Assembly: GCF_000011805.1 (NCBI RefSeq)
Contig: NC_006841.2
From: Aliivibrio fischeri ES114
Lineage (GTDB): Bacteria; Pseudomonadota; Gammaproteobacteria; Enterobacterales; Vibrionaceae
Length of the DNA: 32,000 nucleotides
Direction: 5' to 3' (one strand)
Below the pieces are notes generated by a model. The model ran no database searches. It was not told where the DNA came from and saw only the letters and a program-made list of their open reading frames with translations. The stretch's first letter is position 1. Each line of letters opens with the position of its first letter. Position numbers and translations under genes: made by a program. Below, piece by piece: positions 15,602-26,937 of this stretch.

Positions 15602-16210
15602 TTACGGTTTTAAAGTATGGAACCCAGAGTAAATGCGAGTAAAGGTGGTAAACCAGCAAGCGGCACCAAACACATAGGCGATAATGGTAAAATGGGTTGG
15701 AAACAGACAAAATGCGATAAAACACGCAATGGTTTCTGTTCCTTCGGTTAAGCCACTCATGTAATAAAGGGATTTGTGTTTATAAACTGGATTATCAATT
15801 CCTTGTTTACTTGCCATAATAGCAAAAGCCAAAAAGCTGCTTCCTGTCCCAACAAATGAGAAAATTAAAAACGCACCCGCAATGGCATTTTGATCAGGGT
15901 TGGCGAGAACAAATCCAAAAGGGATCAGTGAATAAAACAGAAAATCCAAACTGATATCAAGAAAGCCGCCCGCATCAGTTATGCCTTGTATTCGAGCTAA
16001 TGCCCCATCTAATCCATCACAAATGCGATTCAAGACAATAAATACTAGAGCCAACAAATATTGCTCTGCAATAAGAGCAGGGAAGGCTAAGCAGCCTAAA
16101 ACAAAACCAAATAGCGTCGTTTGGTTGGCTGTAATTCCCAGTTTATTAATGAGCTTGGCACTTTGCGCTAAAGGCCAACGAATCACTTTAATACTGAAAC
16201 TATCAAGCAT
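15602..16210 (-). CDS. ynjF: CDP-alcohol phosphatidyltransferase-family membrane protein (YnjF-like)
   Basis: It has the family motif DGLDGALAR-x8-GGFLDISLD. The start overlaps the upstream ATPase stop by 8 nt, with GGGAGG inside the ATPase 3' end. Confidence 0.7.
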   Translation of the reverse strand: MLDSFSIKVIRWPLAQSAKLINKLGITANQTTLFGFVLGCLAFPALIAEQYLLALVFIVLNRICDGLDGALARIQGITDAGGFLDISLDFLFYSLIPFGFVLANPDQNAIAGAFLIFSFVGTGSSFLAFAIMASKQGIDNPVYKHKSLYYMSGLTEGTETIACFIAFCLFPTHFTIIAYVFGAACWFTTFTRIYSGFHTLKP

Positions 16211-16850
16211 GAGTTACCTCCCAAGGCCAAGTAAGTACTCGACTTCCTTGTGGTACATCTTCTTTATCGTGTGTCACCATTAAAGCCGGAATATTGGCTT
16301 CTTTTAGCTGTTCAACCACCCAATCTCTAAATTGAATACGAAGGTCTTTATCTAATTTACTAAATGGTTCATCCAGAAGGGCCACTTTGGGTTTTGCAAG
16401 TAGCATACGAGTTAAACTGATGCGCGCTCGTTGGCCACCAGAAATCTGAGCAGGAAAAGAGTTGGCAAGCTTGGTTAGCGAGATATGTTCTAATGCTTGC
16501 ATTGCTTGTGTTTTACGATCATTGCCTTTGATTGCATTAGGTAGTGCAAACGCTAAGTTTTCCCAAACGGTGAGGTGAGGAAATAACAAGTCGTCTTGAA
16601 ATAAGATCCCGACATTACGTTTATGTGCAGGAAGCTTGGTTAAATCAGCACTGTCTAAAGTTAGATTTCCAGAATAAGAAAACTCATCAGAAAGGTGCCC
16701 TGCAATCACATCTAATAAGGTTGATTTTCCACAGCCACTAGGCCCCATTAAGGTTAGGATTTCTCCTTTTTTTACTCTCATATTTAGAGAGGTAAATAGA
16801 GCTTCGCCACCGGTTTTATGAATAGCGAGATTTTCAAGATAAAGACACAT
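16203..16850 (-). CDS. ynjD: ABC transporter ATP-binding protein (YnjD-like)
   Basis: Walker A GPSGCGKST, signature ISGGQRARI and Walker B ALLDEP. 215 aa. Confidence 0.8.
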   Translation of the reverse strand: MCLYLENLAIHKTGGEALFTSLNMRVKKGEILTLMGPSGCGKSTLLDVIAGHLSDEFSYSGNLTLDSADLTKLPAHKRNVGILFQDDLLFPHLTVWENLAFALPNAIKGNDRKTQAMQALEHISLTKLANSFPAQISGGQRARISLTRMLLAKPKVALLDEPFSKLDKDLRIQFRDWVVEQLKEANIPALMVTHDKEDVPQGSRVLTWPWEVTHA

Positions 16851-16863
16851 TCGGTAATTAACC

Positions 16864-24511: not shown

Positions 24512-26311
24512 TTGAGTGATAACTATTACCAAAAACGACTTTCATTTCTTTTATGCAGTTGTTTATTTGTCTTACTGATTTGTCCTACGGTTTGCTACGC
24601 AAATTCAGTAAAAATGAAGCAATATGACGTTGGTGTTTTGGCATTAAGAGGGCATTATCATTGTAATATCGCGTGGGATCCGACAATGAAATGGTTGGAA
24701 TCACAAATTCCAAACAGTAAATTTGTTCTGCATTCTTACAATTTTGATGGACTAGAAAATGCATTTCAAAATGGAGAGTTAGATTTTTTATTAACCAGTC
24801 CAGGGCAAGCCACTACATTTGCAAGACGATTACCTATTAACTGGCTAGCGACTCAGAAGAAAGGGCATGAACTGCCTTTTAGTAAAGCCATTGCATCTTC
24901 TGTGATCGTTCGGGCTGATTCGCCATATAACTCTTTACAAGATATTGAGTATGCCAAAATAGCTGCCGTATCAGAAAAAGCTTTTGGCGGCTTTATCGCC
25001 TTTCATTTTGAAATGGATAAATTGGGCTATTTCCGTTCTTCCTTTTTTGATCGAATTCAATTTACTGGGCCACCAACAGATAACCTTATTCGCTCCGTTG
25101 AAAATGGTGATATTGATGTTGCAATAGCACCAGCTTGTACATTAGAAGAAATGGTCGAAGAAGGGTTCATTGAACGTTCTCAATTTAGAGTGTTAGGTCA
25201 ACAGGATCATGATGGATTTACTTGCGCTGTCAGTACACCACTTTATCCTAACTGGACATTTGCTAAAACAGATAGAGCATCTAACGAAATAGGTAAAAAA
25301 GTCACTCAAGCTCTATTAGCCATGCCTGCTAATGCATTTGCAGCAGAATCAGCAAACAACGTAGGTTGGACACTTCCAGAAAGCAGCTTAAATGTAGATA
25401 AGGTGTATCAACATTTTGATATGCACCCATTGCAGAAACCATGGACACAACAAATGGAAGATTGGCTACACCGCAATCCGTATTTAGCTTTAACCTTGAT
25501 TGCTGGGTTGTTTGGTTTAAATATCTACCATGTGTTACTTGAGCTACGTTTTAAGCGCAGTAAAAAAGTGTTGCGTAAAACATTAGAAGATTTGCGAGAG
25601 AAAAGCTCCATGCTTGAACACGCACAACGAATAATGATTGTTGGTGAGTTAGGAAGCAGTTTGGCTCATGAGATCAATCAACCTTTGTCGGCGATTAAAA
25701 ATTACAGCCATGGGGTAAAATTACGCATTGAAAAAGGAAATACATCCGAAGAGCTGCTTCCTGTTATGGAAAAAATTCAACAGCAGGTCACCGCAGCCAG
25801 TGATATTATTCAACGCCTAAGAGATCTCATTCATAAAAAACCAATAGAGAAACGACGTTTCTGGTTAGGCACGTTAGTTAATGATACTTATCGTTTGGTT
25901 GAACATGATTTTCAGCGAAATAACATAGCGATAGAGATTAACAGTAACGGTGAACCTAATATGGTTTCAGCGGATTATACTGGCTTACAACAATTGTTAC
26001 TTAATCTATTAAATAACGCTAAAGATGCTTGTATCAAGATAGAACAAGTAACAGATCCACTTGTTGTCAGGATTGAGTTGATATATCTCGTTGATCAAGT
26101 ACGGATTATGATCATAGATAATGGCGTTGGTATTGAAGATGAAACGACACCGTTAGAGCAGGCATTCTATACAACCAAAAAAGATGGGTTGGGGCTTGGT
26201 TTAGCGATTTGCCGTGATGTAATTGAAAATCATGATGGAATGATGAAATACAGCTCAGTCAAACCAAGAGGATGCTGTGTTGAGGTAATTTTACCTTATC
26301 AAAAGGGATAA
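24512..26311 (+). CDS. TtrS/ThsS-like sensor histidine kinase with periplasmic PhnD-type binding domain
   Basis: The periplasmic domain has TtrS-like blocks (YDVGVLALRG, AFGGF, CAVSTPLYPNWTFAKT), then a TM segment. The kinase core has H-box LAHEINQPLSAI, N-box LLNLLNNAKDA, and DNGVGI / GLGLGLAICR. The start is TTG and uncertain; the signal/TM (LSFLLCSCLFVLLICPTVCYA) requires a start near here. Confidence 0.8.
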   Translation: MSDNYYQKRLSFLLCSCLFVLLICPTVCYANSVKMKQYDVGVLALRGHYHCNIAWDPTMKWLESQIPNSKFVLHSYNFDGLENAFQNGELDFLLTSPGQATTFARRLPINWLATQKKGHELPFSKAIASSVIVRADSPYNSLQDIEYAKIAAVSEKAFGGFIAFHFEMDKLGYFRSSFFDRIQFTGPPTDNLIRSVENGDIDVAIAPACTLEEMVEEGFIERSQFRVLGQQDHDGFTCAVSTPLYPNWTFAKTDRASNEIGKKVTQALLAMPANAFAAESANNVGWTLPESSLNVDKVYQHFDMHPLQKPWTQQMEDWLHRNPYLALTLIAGLFGLNIYHVLLELRFKRSKKVLRKTLEDLREKSSMLEHAQRIMIVGELGSSLAHEINQPLSAIKNYSHGVKLRIEKGNTSEELLPVMEKIQQQVTAASDIIQRLRDLIHKKPIEKRRFWLGTLVNDTYRLVEHDFQRNNIAIEINSNGEPNMVSADYTGLQQLLLNLLNNAKDACIKIEQVTDPLVVRIELIYLVDQVRIMIIDNGVGIEDETTPLEQAFYTTKKDGLGLGLAICRDVIENHDGMMKYSSVKPRGCCVEVILPYQKG

Positions 26312-26319
26312 CAAAGGGA

Positions 26320-26937
26320 ATGAGTAAAGGACATATCGACATAAGTAATTCAAATGTTTATGTGGTTGATGATGAGCTCTCAGTTCGAGAATCATTGGTT
26401 TTCATGCTGGAAGGATACGGTTTGTCTGTTTATGAATTTTGCAGTGGACGAGCGTTTTTAGACTCAGTTGATGTATCAACGCCGGGGTGTGCGATTCTAG
26501 ACAGCCGGATGCCTGAACTGAGAGGTCAAGACGTACATGAATTATTGAAGCAACAGAACAGTCCTTTAAGTGTTATTTTCTTAACTGGCCATGGAGATAT
26601 CCCCATGGCGGTTGATGCACTTAAAGCGGGAGCTGCTGATTTTTTTCAAAAGCCAGTGGATGGTGAAGAGCTGTTTATCGCAATTAAAAATGGATTAGCC
26701 GCATCTGAAAAGCGTTATAAAAGCCAAGATGCACATCGCTCTTATCTTTCTTTAACGGCCAGAGAGCAAGAAGTACTTAAATTGATTGTTCAAGGAATGA
26801 AAAACCAACAAATGGCTGATGCAATGTGTGTTTCTTTACGAACCATTGAAGTTCATCGCTCCAATTTAATGAAAAAACTGGGCGTAAATAGCGTGGTGGA
26901 TTTGATCATGCGCTATGGAAATAGCATTAGTAATTAG
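26320..26937 (+). CDS. TtrR/FixJ-type response regulator (REC + LuxR HTH)
   Basis: Receiver residues are present (VVDDE, ILDSRMP, FFQKP). The C-terminal HTH is LTAREQEVLKLIVQGMKNQQMADAMCVSLRTIEVHRSNLMKKLGV. It begins 8 nt after the kinase stop. Confidence 0.85.
   Translation: MSKGHIDISNSNVYVVDDELSVRESLVFMLEGYGLSVYEFCSGRAFLDSVDVSTPGCAILDSRMPELRGQDVHELLKQQNSPLSVIFLTGHGDIPMAVDALKAGAADFFQKPVDGEELFIAIKNGLAASEKRYKSQDAHRSYLSLTAREQEVLKLIVQGMKNQQMADAMCVSLRTIEVHRSNLMKKLGVNSVVDLIMRYGNSISN

Follow-up and report, generated by a model that had tools for sequence, protein, structure and literature searches.

A conserved rhodanese and Hdr-like gene module next to a TtrSR-like sensor pair in Aliivibrio fischeri: a candidate accessory route for sulfane sulfur

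The locus described here lies in a window (the whole 32-kb stretch of A. fischeri ES114 DNA that we analysed) and comprises ten open reading frames, eight on the minus strand and two on the plus strand. The ORF check and Pfam searches bore out the gene composition, coordinates, gaps and overlap given in the initial annotation. On the minus strand the first four genes encode a tandem rhodanese of 327 aa (23218..24201; Pfam Rhodanese twice), a 598-aa GltD-like NAD(P)H flavoprotein with an HdrC-like domain (21392..23188; Fer4_20, Pyr_redox_2 and Fer4_17), a 257-aa HdrB-like CCG protein (20622..21395; CCG twice) and a 225-aa, YdjX-like VTT/TVP38 membrane protein of the DedA superfamily (19929..20606; VTT_dom, 92.8 bits). 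They are spaced by 29 nt, by a 4-nt ATGA overlap, read in the sequence, of the CCG start codon with the flavoprotein stop, and by 15 nt. After a gap of 240 bp (19689..19928) the same strand continues with genes for a YnjB-family periplasmic substrate-binding protein (381 aa, 18543..19688; SBP_bac_1), a fused two-domain, YnjC-like ABC permease (553 aa, 16864..18525), a YnjD-like ABC ATPase (215 aa, 16203..16850; ABC_tran) and a YnjF-like membrane enzyme of the CDP-alcohol phosphatidyltransferase family (202 aa, 15602..16210; CDP-OH_P_transf, PF01066). The permease had no Pfam match, and was recognised by ABC permease models in NCBIfam. Divergently, beyond a 310-bp control region (24202..24511), the plus strand encodes a sensor histidine kinase of 599 aa with a TTG start (24512..26311; Phosphonate-bd, HisKA and HATPase_c) and a response regulator of 205 aa (26320..26937; Response_reg and GerE). 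This gene arrangement is far beyond chance.

Pfam and the annotation place no molybdopterin subunit anywhere in the window, so the initial description of a system without a molybdoenzyme is correct for the locus. It does not extend to the genome, since a canonical ttrSR-ttrBCA-tsdBA cluster is found elsewhere in V. parahaemolyticus and in at least one strain of A. fischeri. The genes for a DmsD chaperone and a NapF-like ferredoxin at 671-1812 of the window suggest that a molybdoenzyme operon ends at its left edge, 13.8 kb from the locus.

The proteins of the four-gene operon retain the residues expected of active enzymes. In the rhodanese a signal peptide or anchor at the N-terminus precedes a first domain that is inactive, whereas the second, C-terminal domain is catalytic and carries Cys276 in its CQSGVRS loop. 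Export signals of one kind or another (signal peptide, lipobox, signal anchor) were present in all 26 orthologues, the loop was exact in 21 of the 26 and near-identical in the others, Cys276 was invariant (27/27 sequences), and the protein is firmly predicted to be exported. The flavoprotein combines N-terminal Fe-S cluster cysteines, FAD and NAD(P)H sites, and a C-terminal HdrC-like ferredoxin domain for two [4Fe-4S] clusters; its cluster cysteines, and likewise its motifs GAGPAG and GGGDVAMD, do not vary among 16 orthologues. Orthologues from Clostridia and Bacillaceae are 60-65% identical. In the CCG protein, presumed to be the catalytic subunit, the two C...CCG...CxxC motifs keep every one of their ten cysteines across 25 orthologues, and 130 representative clusters match it at E<=1e-30. 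The flavoprotein/CCG pair is cytoplasmic and, judged by its motifs, holds every residue required for a chain from NAD(P)H through FAD and [4Fe-4S] clusters to an HdrB-type catalytic site.

We defined the core as the exported tandem rhodanese, the GltD-like/HdrC-like flavoprotein, the HdrB-like CCG protein and the VTT/DedA protein. It was present in 24 fetched loci, in four different gene orders, from five phyla (Pseudomonadota, Bacillota, Fusobacteriota, Spirochaetota and Desulfobacterota); in Fusobacteriaceae the flavoprotein is fused to the CCG protein. The VTT protein was found in all 24 and always accompanies the other three. The record names mark many of the hosts as alkaliphiles or as bacteria from compartment P1 of the termite gut, habitats in which polysulfide is stable, and many are fermentative gut anaerobes. 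Directly before the Alkaliphilus operon stand YeeE-TusA-YeeE-like genes, and the YeeE-type family includes a thiosulfate uptake system.

The kinase has a periplasmic PhnD-like domain, and its TTG start supplies the N-terminal membrane helix, a long form supported by orthologues of 600-601 aa. Kinase and regulator (REC plus LuxR-type helix-turn-helix) scored below the NCBIfam cut-offs for TtrS (357 bits against 750) and TtrR (202 against 290). The sensor domain alone reached 199 bits with the TtrS model and 46 with PhnD-type models, in agreement with the proposal that it resembles TtrS rather than phosphonate binders, and the regulator shares a nearly identical recognition helix with canonical TtrR. 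Since the kinase falls in a separate clade, restricted to Vibrionaceae and seen only beside this operon, the pair is by sequence a Vibrionaceae-only paralogue of TtrSR. The predicted synteny of pair and operon was found in 8/8 Vibrionaceae loci (the window, L004-L009 and L087) and broke down outside this family, the pair being absent from all 18 non-Vibrionaceae loci carrying the core; it is a lineage-specific add-on.

In Vibrionaceae a dedicated TtrSR paralogue diverges from the operon, and the control region between them contains a TtrR box. This box, GTGGTAAACCAC (24408..24419), is a perfect match to GTGG-N4-CCAC, the only exact one in the 32 kb (0.16 expected by chance), and extends to the palindrome TTGTGGTAAACCACAA. 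It occupies the same position in all eight Vibrionaceae loci and is followed by a conserved block, TTGATCTAAAGCAA, at 24435-24448. The canonical ttrS promoters have the same architecture of a box plus TTGATCTAAAACAA.

The proposed tie to tetrathionate regulation was already present in published V. parahaemolyticus data. There TtrR shifted the Q4437_05905 promoter fragment in EMSA (PMC11293645); the primers map exactly onto L004 and the fragment holds the TtrR box. In the ttrR mutant the flavoprotein gene (Q4437_05895) was down by log2 4.18 (18-fold), the CCG gene (Q4437_05890) by 2.88 (7-fold), and Q4437_05905 and Q4437_05910 by 1.63 and 2.16 (PMC11293645), while the rhodanese (05900), VTT (05885) and ABC genes were not in the differential-expression list. 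The canonical tetrathionate regulator thus binds the control region in V. parahaemolyticus, and normal expression of flavoprotein and CCG protein requires it. The authors left the sensor pair "uncharacterized" (PMC11293645). Importantly for the idea of an independent reduction system, a V. parahaemolyticus ttrA mutant in which the locus is intact neither consumed tetrathionate nor made detectable H2S from tetrathionate or thiosulfate. Since ttrA is needed for all detectable activity of this kind, the locus is not an independent bulk reductase in that species, and looks like an accessory rather than a replacement reductase.

The transporter genes behave differently from the core. The YnjBCD/YnjF arm accompanies about half of the core loci and is missing from the other half, the binding protein has been lost in one closely related Aliivibrio, and the ABC genes and ynjF stay together in 12 loci as well as in E. 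coli; the arm is separable from the core. As initially reported, a terminator scan found no terminator-like site in the 240-bp gap. A block there, including TATAAT at 19834-19829, is kept among Vibrionaceae and is probably an internal promoter. The absence of the ABC genes from the ttrR list also fits a separable arm. The importer's suggested role in inorganic sulfur uptake fared poorly. The binding protein belongs to NF008633 (530 bits; cut-off 203), and its family profile matches polyamine, opine and thiamine-type binders with no Sbp/CysP-type oxyanion binder among the matches. Since the nearest solved relatives are the polyamine binders PotD, PotF and SpuD, not sulfate or thiosulfate binders, import of an inorganic sulfur oxyanion appears doubtful; Trp, Glu, Asp and Asn are frequent among the residues that never vary in the binding protein.

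We tentatively read the locus as a conserved, uncharacterised module handling sulfane sulfur, an accessory pathway that would reduce persulfide with NAD(P)H, and give this reading a probability of about 0.4. Outside the cytoplasm, polysulfide or thiosulfate would supply the rhodanese with sulfane sulfur, both being species expected to arise whenever tetrathionate, thiosulfate and sulfide coexist. Since the flavoprotein is cytoplasmic and the rhodanese exported, a transmembrane sulfur-transfer step must be assumed, in which the sulfur, or a small carrier persulfide, may cross aided by the VTT protein. With NAD(P)H as reductant, the flavoprotein/CCG complex would then act on the persulfide, polysulfide or disulfide that results, freeing sulfide and thiol for assimilation or for the removal of reactive sulfur species. 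The module would form a low-flux accessory branch of the tetrathionate/thiosulfate stimulon rather than a respiratory reductase. The separable YnjBCD/YnjF arm most likely imports an amine-type organic compound, which YnjF might attach to a membrane lipid or carrier by phosphotransfer of the CDP-alcohol type. In support, DedA proteins occur fused to rhodanese and pyridine-nucleotide disulfide oxidoreductase domains (PMC10127716). The role otherwise known for DedA proteins is the flipping of lipids or undecaprenyl phosphate (PMC10127716), which counts against sulfur transfer. Also against our reading, CCG domains occur in enzymes with non-sulfur substrates (for example lactate, glycolate and glycerol-3-phosphate, by NCBIfam matches), the nearest fused sibling family is labelled as near Sec, pointing to selenium, the rhodanese, VTT and ABC genes are missing from the ttrR list, and the TtrR box lies some 210 bp from the rhodanese start codon.

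Other explanations start from the same genes. An envelope role, in which YnjF builds an unusual phospholipid or lipid-linked headgroup from what YnjBCD imports, the DedA protein flips it, and rhodanese and reductase tend a thiol headgroup, is unlikely. It would suit the intact catalytic motif of YnjF (D65xxD68G69xxA72R73...G81xxxD85xxxD89, invariant in 14 sequences), the coupling of ABC genes and ynjF, the amine-type binding protein, a kinase plus DUF2064 nucleotidyltransferase-like pair replacing YnjF in two termite-gut loci, and the putative phospholipid flippases of DedA subfamily COG0398 (PMC10127716). However, the dispensability of the arm and the lost Aliivibrio binding protein weigh against it, and nothing ties a lipid to the HdrB-like site. 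We regard as rather improbable a self-sufficient, molybdenum-free dissimilatory pathway that replaces TtrBCA or PhsABC, with the ABC transporter bringing in thiosulfate, tetrathionate or polythionate for NAD(P)H reduction in the cytoplasm. A locus without a molybdoenzyme, equipped with a TtrS-like sensor and a TtrR box, would fit it; moreover the locus kinase clusters with 59 A. fischeri sequences and the canonical A. fischeri TtrS with one, which suggests that most strains lack ttrBCA. The ttrA phenotype, the binding-protein profile and the core loci without a transporter all weigh against it.

Selenium or tellurium handling, with DedA-type selenite uptake, a rhodanese perselenide carrier and reduction of selenotrisulfide to selenide, has similarly poor odds. 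Three matches point this way, the flavoprotein's to YgfK (279 bits), which is putatively a subunit of selenate reductase, the rhodanese's weak one to ExtH (51 bits), and one to the nearest fused family, NF045663, named 'diclust_near_Sec', but all three score under the family cut-offs. DedA has been linked to selenite sensitivity, the core host Salisediminibacterium beveridgei uses oxyanions of selenium and tellurium for respiration, and the YeeE/YedE-family neighbours in Alkaliphilus would be compatible. Yet selD, selA or selB-type genes were not found in the window or the annotated loci, and the control element of the Vibrionaceae loci is a TtrR box of the tetrathionate type, with V. parahaemolyticus genes responding to TtrR. 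It is very unlikely that the genes lie side by side with no function in common, the role of the sensor pair being limited to fine-tuning ttrBCA and tsdBA (a proposal of the V. parahaemolyticus authors) and the rhodanese acting, as reported for YnjE, in molybdenum cofactor sulfuration. Deletion of 05905-05910 lowered ttrBCA promoter activity 3.0-fold and tsdBA 1.4-fold (PMC11293645), and E. coli YnjE is annotated as a molybdopterin synthase sulfurtransferase. Against this, the core persists in five phyla despite shuffled gene order, the kinase clade occurs only beside the operon, and cytoplasmic cofactor synthesis is out of reach for an exported rhodanese. Least probable is an oxidative, sHdr-like direction, with carrier-bound sulfane sulfur oxidised and electrons passed to NAD(P)+. 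In its favour, two papers (PMC11094781, PMC6067878) describe Hdr-like complexes oxidising sulfur with rhodanese, TusA and DsrE relays in sulfur oxidisers. However, the window encodes no lipoate-binding protein, DsrE or TusA, and fermentative gut anaerobes are frequent hosts. By its redox potential, NAD(P)+ is also a poor acceptor for sulfane-to-sulfite oxidation.

We found no paper describing the rhodanese–Hdr-like system, consistent with the initial view that no such system had been characterised. The recurrence of the core in five bacterial phyla makes it a promising candidate for a new way of handling sulfur. The E. coli ydjXYZ-ynjABCD-ynjE-ynjF region has six of eight components in common with the locus. 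The ynjBCD-ynjE-ynjF association named in the initial annotation is real and extends to the DedA protein YdjX. Identities are 40% to YdjX (full length), 43% to YnjB, 38% to YnjC (over part of its length), 51% to YnjD and 61% to YnjF. In E. coli ydjXYZ-ynjABCD and ynjE are activated by FNR, that is, anaerobically (PMC3688515), which favours the sulfane-sulfur reading; the poor activity of YnjE on thiosulfate or mercaptopyruvate (PMC10215317) counts against it.

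All ten open reading frames proposed in the initial annotation lie where it had placed them (15602-26937), and Pfam and NCBIfam searches agree with the domains it had assigned. On the minus strand, an operon encodes a tandem rhodanese with an N-terminal signal or anchor (23218-24201; Pfam and NCBIfam), a 598-aa GltD-like flavoprotein (Fer4_20 and Pyr_redox_2) with a C-terminal Fer4_17 dicluster domain (21392-23188), a 257-aa protein with two Pfam CCG domains (20622-21395), and a VTT/TVP38 membrane protein (19929-20606). These are followed by a YnjB-family binding protein (18543-19688, minus strand; NF008633, 530 bits against a cut-off of 203) and, downstream of it and reaching down to 15602-16210, by a fused permease, an ABC ATPase and a CDP-alcohol phosphatidyltransferase-family (YnjF-like) protein. 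On the plus strand, divergent from the operon, lie a kinase gene whose product carries a PhnD-like sensor domain (24512-26311) and the gene of a REC/LuxR regulator (26320-26937). The spacing was as described too, with intergenic gaps of 29, 15 and 240 nt and one ATGA overlap, and no terminator-like site was detected in the 240-bp gap. The claim that the locus has no molybdoenzyme also held, as no molybdopterin enzyme gene occurs within the 32-kb window; specifically, neither locus nor window encodes a molybdopterin catalytic subunit, a four-cluster ferredoxin subunit or an NrfD anchor of the Phs/Ttr/Psr type.

Elsewhere in the window, the genes at 671-1812, encoding a DmsD Tat-proofreading chaperone (164.8 bits; cut-off 162) and then a NapF-like ferredoxin, are probably the tail of a DMSO-reductase-family molybdenum enzyme operon that starts left of the window, 13.8 kb from the locus. 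The low-GC stretch at 8001-10000 (0.30-0.32), with an astacin-family metalloprotease gene (8085-9218) and a 114-aa ORF lacking a family match, may be a small acquired island. An Rfam scan of the window and six Firmicute loci was negative for riboswitches and other RNAs, TPP riboswitches included, although some sources label the transporter a 'thiamine transporter'; RNA therefore offered no clue to the ligand.

Since a signal peptide, lipobox or signal anchor is present in all 26 rhodanese orthologues, the rhodanese is predicted to be extracytoplasmic. It consists of two Pfam Rhodanese stretches with a six-residue catalytic loop, and the loop sequence CQSGVRS, which holds the invariant catalytic cysteine (C276), is exact in 21 of the 26 orthologues and near-identical in the rest. 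The flavoprotein carries no export signal and retains the N-terminal cluster cysteines and the glycine motifs for FAD and NAD(P)H (Pfam: Fer4_20, 86.7 bits; FAD/NAD(P)H-binding fold, 98.6 bits), with C490, C493, C498, C502, C533, C536, C539 and C543 of its Fer4_17 domain (residues 489-546) invariant. In the CCG protein, ten cysteines (C10, C40, C41, C77, C80, C126, C161, C162, C196 and C199) are found without exception in all 25 sequences and form two HdrB-type CCG motifs (C-Xn-CCG-Xn-CxxC). Together, the features of these two proteins predict a cytoplasmic chain running from NAD(P)H through FAD and an Fe-S chain to an HdrB-type site.

Assignment of the flavoprotein to the GltD equivalogs was rejected (TIGR01316, 273 versus 472 bits; TIGR01318, 236 versus 483 bits), and no GltB-type large subunit is encoded in the window. 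The flavoprotein shares 98% identity with a protein of Aliivibrio fischeri, which places the window in that species or a very near relative. The CCG protein belongs to a family of modest size (130 representative clusters at E<=1e-30) that occurs in stand-alone, HdrC-fused and flavoprotein-fused forms, and a sequence search of solved structures returned one marginal match to it. We also sought sulfur-relay cysteines in the VTT and binding proteins and found none conserved: C58 of the VTT protein is present in just 7 of 26 sequences, and the binding protein lacks cysteine altogether.

The flavoprotein alignment was used to scan one genome per species, all ten window proteins were searched against 84 fetched loci (numbered with an L prefix), and the ORFs of those loci were clustered. 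The CCG protein, rhodanese and VTT protein accompany flavoprotein orthologues (at least 49% identity) in 24 loci from five phyla, the hosts being Vibrionaceae, Clostridia (Alkaliphilus, Caloramator, Clostridium sediminicola), Bacillaceae (Salipaludibacillus, Salisediminibacterium), Oscillospiraceae, Defluviitaleaceae, Erysipelotrichaceae, Fusobacteriaceae, termite-gut Treponemataceae and Desulfovibrionaceae. The order of the four genes changes with lineage (Rhod-Flavo-CCG-VTT, Flavo-CCG-Rhod-VTT, Flavo-CCG-VTT-Rhod or VTT-Flavo-CCG-Rhod), and in Fusobacteriaceae the flavoprotein and CCG protein are fused in a single chain of 800-900 aa. That this gene quartet stays together in five phyla, despite shuffling and fusion, argues strongly for a joint function. 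A remoter flavoprotein subfamily (41-51% identity) is CCG-fused and adjoins an EamA-type transporter gene, without rhodanese and VTT genes.

The ABC transporter and YnjF genes stand beside this core in 12-13 loci, namely all complete Vibrionaceae loci, several from Firmicutes and one from a Fusobacteriaceae genome, and are absent from the remaining core loci. When Vibrionaceae were compared with Clostridia and Bacillaceae (L001, L010, L011 and L020), the flavoprotein and CCG protein were 60-65% identical, and the ABC and YnjF proteins just 23-45%. This difference suggests that the core may have been transferred laterally and that the core and the ABC/YnjF arm may have had separate histories.

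Several genes adjoin the core in particular lineages. A search for regulators common to the loci outside Vibrionaceae yielded only one family, of small proteins (110-125 aa) of unknown function and with no Pfam match, encoded just upstream of the flavoprotein/rhodanese operon in four Clostridia loci (L001, 9551-9883; L002, 4656-4988; L010, 6576-6938; L011, about 8315-8653); its members may act as a regulator or partner specific to this lineage. In Alkaliphilus hydrothermalis (L010, 5884-8575) the rhodanese operon is directly preceded by a C_GCAxxG_C_C-family gene, a gene for a small protein of unknown kind and a YeeE-half/TusA-like/YeeE-half trio, and the operon of Cetobacterium (L027) also has a related C_GCAxxG_C_C gene on its upstream side. 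Among the members of the YeeE/YeeD family is a system for thiosulfate uptake, and YedE/YedF have been connected with selenium. Two termite-gut genomes encode APH/choline-kinase-like and DUF2064 nucleotidyltransferase-like proteins near the operon (L014, 13376-15591; L017, 19174-20860); L017 has the ABC transporter and no YnjF, an arrangement that hints at a CDP-alcohol-type activation pathway.

The initial annotation had envisaged import of a sulfur compound by the ABC transporter. Using a profile built from 13 YnjB-family proteins, we found the nearest solved relatives to be the polyamine binders PotD, PotF and SpuD (E about 1e-5), followed by aminoethylphosphonate, opine, thiamine and ferric binders, with no Sbp/CysP-type protein among them, so that an inorganic sulfur oxyanion is an unlikely cargo. 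The invariant residues of the family are rich in Trp, Glu, Asp and Asn. The binding protein on its own retrieved nothing in a sequence search of solved structures, and its AlphaFold2 model, built on a 12-sequence alignment of about 80% identity, had a mean pLDDT of 35. The YnjF-like protein keeps the full CDP-alcohol phosphotransferase motif. The 240-bp gap contains a block conserved among Vibrionaceae, with TATAAT at 19834-19829, and we regard the arm as a separable accessory that has a putative promoter to itself. In a close relative, Aliivibrio sp. S4MY1 (L005, 12581-13469), the ynjB-like gene has been lost and the permease gene directly follows the VTT gene after about 210 bp.

For the sensor pair, by far the best NCBIfam matches were TtrS (NF040750) for the kinase and TtrR (NF040749) for the regulator, both below equivalog level (357.3 bits against a cut-off of 750, and 202 against 290). 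Their Pfam architecture is of the TtrS/TtrR type, with a PhnD-like periplasmic domain and HisKA/HATPase in the kinase, and REC with a LuxR-type helix-turn-helix in the regulator. A sensor closer to phosphonate binders was considered and rejected: the sensor domain alone scored 199 bits against the TtrS model and 46 against PhnD-type models, so the TtrS-like assignment stands. A sequence search of solved structures with this domain gave only kinase-core matches and a weak match to ArrX.

A neighbour-joining tree of 120 homologous kinases, the window kinase included, divided into two clades. One contains 42 sequences, all from Vibrionaceae and including the window kinase, and all of its members whose context was examined are divergent from the rhodanese operon. 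The other, of 78 sequences, includes V. parahaemolyticus TtrS, and the two members looked up, from one A. fischeri strain and Moritella, are divergent from ttrBCA-tsdBA; these canonical ttrSR-ttrBCA-tsdBA loci thus lie elsewhere than in the window, which has no molybdopterin, NrfD or TtrB-type genes. The split in the tree and the gene contexts indicate that the sensor pair is a TtrSR paralogue that acquired a different target operon. Synteny of the pair with the operon, set as a check in the initial annotation, holds in Vibrionaceae (the window, L004-L009 and L087) and fails elsewhere, the pair being confined to Vibrionaceae among the loci examined. The kinase ORF has a TTG start, and its first part (24512-24613) encodes an N-terminal membrane helix; the 565-aa A. 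fischeri database entry starts 34 codons later and would drop this helix, and orthologues of 600-601 aa support the longer form. Database clusters hold 59 A. fischeri members for the locus kinase and 1 for the canonical A. fischeri kinase, and canonical ttr may therefore be rare in this species.

The 310-bp divergent region contains the single perfect GTGG-N4-CCAC TtrR box of the window (TTGTGGTAAACCACAA, 24408-24419; 0.16 exact boxes expected in the window by chance), which lies about 93 bp from the kinase start and about 210 bp from the rhodanese start, upstream of both. Each Vibrionaceae locus (L004-L009, L087 and the window) has a single copy of the box in this same place, followed after 15-17 nt by a conserved block, TTGATCTAAAGCAA, an arrangement like that at canonical ttrS promoters; the DNA-recognition helices of the locus regulator and canonical TtrR are nearly identical. 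The canonical ttr loci of an A. fischeri strain (L086, 4730 and 9892) and of Moritella (L088, 2625 and 7858) have two exact boxes each, one between ttrS and ttrB, the other ahead of tsdB. A second, one-mismatch site resembling the box (GTGTTATCCCAC) lies at 24343-24354 of the window, about 145 bp upstream of the rhodanese start, and V. parahaemolyticus has a GTGGG half-site at the matching place.

Published data from V. parahaemolyticus bear directly on this promoter. Zhong et al. (PMC11293645) described a second sensor pair, Q4437_05905-05910, which they termed 'uncharacterized', and reported TtrR binding to the promoter of the pair in EMSA, a 7-fold activation of that promoter by TtrR in E. 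coli, and lower ttrBCA and tsdBA promoter activity once the pair was deleted. Since their primers match the Vibrionaceae locus L004 exactly and the EMSA fragment includes the TtrR box, Q4437_05905-05910 is the orthologue of the window sensor pair. Their supplementary table for the ttrR mutant lists reduced expression of the flavoprotein gene (Q4437_05895, 'FAD-dependent oxidoreductase', log2 -4.18), the CCG-protein gene (Q4437_05890, '(Fe-S)-binding protein', log2 -2.88) and the sensor pair (Q4437_05905, log2 -1.63; Q4437_05910, log2 -2.16); the first two were left undiscussed by the authors, and the rhodanese, VTT and ABC genes are absent from the list. The drop in expression is experimental evidence that, in V. 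parahaemolyticus, the flavoprotein and CCG-protein genes belong to the tetrathionate stimulon.

Our preferred reading, to which we give a probability of roughly 0.4, is that the locus provides an accessory sulfane-sulfur pathway. The rhodanese would capture sulfane sulfur outside the cytoplasm, the VTT protein would assist its passage across the membrane, and the resulting persulfide, polysulfide or disulfide would undergo NAD(P)H-dependent reduction at the HdrB-like site. In Vibrionaceae the pathway would be wired to the TtrR-box promoter through the dedicated TtrSR paralogue and cross-regulated by canonical TtrR. Many hosts of the core are alkaliphiles or come from the alkaline P1 compartment of the termite gut, and polysulfide is chemically stable in alkaline habitats, which points to polysulfide as a natural substrate. 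A wider proposal, which we hold only tentatively and think rather unlikely, is that the core constitutes an unrecognised molybdenum-free route in five phyla, combining capture of extracellular sulfane sulfur (polysulfide or thiosulfate), DedA-family transit and NAD(P)H reduction at an HdrB-type site.

The strongest claim of the initial annotation, a stand-alone reduction pathway, would make the locus a self-sufficient molybdenum-free respiratory system. A V. parahaemolyticus ttrA mutant that retains the locus consumes no tetrathionate and forms no detectable H2S from tetrathionate or thiosulfate (PMC11293645), which argues that the locus is not an independent bulk reductase, at least in that species, and leaves this reading improbable. 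A lipid or envelope function, which the CDP-alcohol phosphotransferase motif and the membership of the VTT protein in the DedA family might favour, is unlikely too; the motif belongs to an arm missing from many core loci. Handling of selenium or tellurium would recall the 'near Sec' label of the sibling family NF045663, and is set against two operon genes that belong to the tetrathionate stimulon in V. parahaemolyticus; we give it little credence. That the genes are merely adjacent, without shared function, is very improbable given the linkage of the four core genes across phyla. Least probable of all would be an oxidative, sHdr-like role: double CCG motifs and rhodaneses occur in both systems, and the window encodes no lipoate-binding protein, DsrE or TusA.

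A literature search found no description of this gene combination, the sensor pair alone having been noticed and left uncharacterised (PMC11293645). The cluster is conserved, lends itself to testing and touches several open questions, even with its most exciting reading weakened by the ttrA phenotype and its function still inferred. If the accessory role is true, bacteria would have a further, molybdenum-independent and NAD(P)H-linked way of handling tetrathionate, thiosulfate and polysulfide, a chemistry that matters in inflamed guts, marine symbioses and alkaline sulfidic habitats; it would also account for the second, 'uncharacterized' TtrSR-like sensor already known to influence ttr expression in V. 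parahaemolyticus, define a role in sulfur metabolism for a bacterial HdrB-like enzyme, and offer a testable hypothesis for the E. coli ydjXYZ-ynjABCDEF cluster and for a DedA subfamily. The sensor and box could then serve as a new biosensor part with a different ligand specificity. If the wider route were true, it would supply a first function for the long-orphan E. coli ydjXYZ-ynjABCD-ynjE-ynjF cluster, and DedA/VTT proteins would gain a non-lipid, or lipid-linked sulfur, cargo.

All parts of the locus come from known families, and the predicted chemistry has known analogues in Npsr, CoA-persulfide reductase, rhodanese with Asr, Sud-Psr and sHdr. The closest regulatory counterpart is the canonical TtrSR-TtrBCA(-TsdBA) system of Salmonella and V. 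parahaemolyticus (PMC11293645), which likewise pairs a PhnD-like kinase with a LuxR-type regulator and places the sensor genes divergent from their target. The two share the GTGG-N4-CCAC box, the downstream TTGATCTAAARCAA block and a near-identical recognition helix; however, identity between the locus kinase and canonical TtrS is just 43-47%, the two belong to different clades, and the target operon of the locus pair, unlike ttrBCA, encodes no Mo-bisPGD enzyme.

HdrABC and Hdr-like systems (sHdr, DsrK) resemble the locus in the HdrB-type double CCG with its ten invariant cysteines and in the HdrC-like two-[4Fe-4S] feed, and sHdr and Dsr also have rhodanese-type sulfur transferases alongside. 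In contrast to them, the locus takes electrons through a GltD-like, NAD(P)H-type protein and has no HdrA/MvhD, lipoate-binding protein, DsrC, DsrE or TusA; no HdrA model appears among the best NCBIfam matches listed for the flavoprotein, and the hosts lack both CoM and CoB. The best NCBIfam match for the CCG protein is NF045663, 'pyridine nucleotide-disulfide oxidoreductase/dicluster-binding protein (near Sec)', which contains the same three modules in one chain, as opposed to two genes in the window. Membership was rejected, as the single-chain cut-off is 530 bits and the window flavoprotein and CCG protein reach 240 and 212; fused homologues from Fusobacteriaceae and Clostridia, at 450-496 bits, also stay under it. 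NF045663 is a sibling family, not the same family.

In the Sud-Psr system of Wolinella, periplasmic Sud delivers polysulfide sulfur. Halanaerobium is reported to reduce thiosulfate without molybdenum by means of a rhodanese and AsrABC (PMC5497025). In both, a rhodanese acts first on the sulfur of thiosulfate or polysulfide, as proposed for the locus, and the downstream enzyme is a sirohaem sulfite reductase (Halanaerobium) or a molybdenum polysulfide reductase (Wolinella), not a GltD/HdrCB-type complex. Npsr, CoA-persulfide reductase and Pyrococcus SudAB/NSR couple NAD(P)H reduction of sulfane sulfur with a rhodanese, much as the locus is predicted to do (compare PMC7969121). These enzymes are single flavoprotein disulfide reductases that use an active-site cysteine or CoA and have a cytoplasmic fused rhodanese, whereas in the locus the predicted catalytic site is on the Fe-S CCG protein and the rhodanese is exported.

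Finally, the association of ynj genes noted for E. coli in the initial annotation was correct and understated, as K-12 has a nine-gene block comprising ydjX (DedA), ydjY, ydjZ (DedA), ynjA (AhpD-like), ynjB, ynjC, ynjD, ynjE (periplasmic rhodanese) and ynjF. Identities to the E. coli proteins are 61% for the YnjF-like protein, 51% for the ABC ATPase (YnjD), 43% for the binding protein (YnjB), 40% for the VTT protein (YdjX), 38% (partial) for the permease (YnjC) and 26% for the rhodanese (YnjE). Six of eight components are thus common to both (DedA/VTT, YnjB, YnjC, YnjD, YnjF and a periplasmic multi-domain rhodanese). The E. coli cluster has the AhpD-like YnjA and the lipoprotein YdjY, neither of which is matched by any window protein, in place of the flavoprotein/CCG reductase; its YnjE has three rhodanese domains against two, and unlike the Vibrionaceae locus it has no adjacent TtrSR-like sensor. 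YnjE is a poor thiosulfate sulfurtransferase whose physiological substrate is unknown (PMC10215317), and ydjXYZ-ynjABCD and ynjE are activated by FNR (PMC3688515). Independent evidence from domain fusions connects rhodanese and pyridine-nucleotide disulfide oxidoreductase domains with DedA proteins (PMC10127716).
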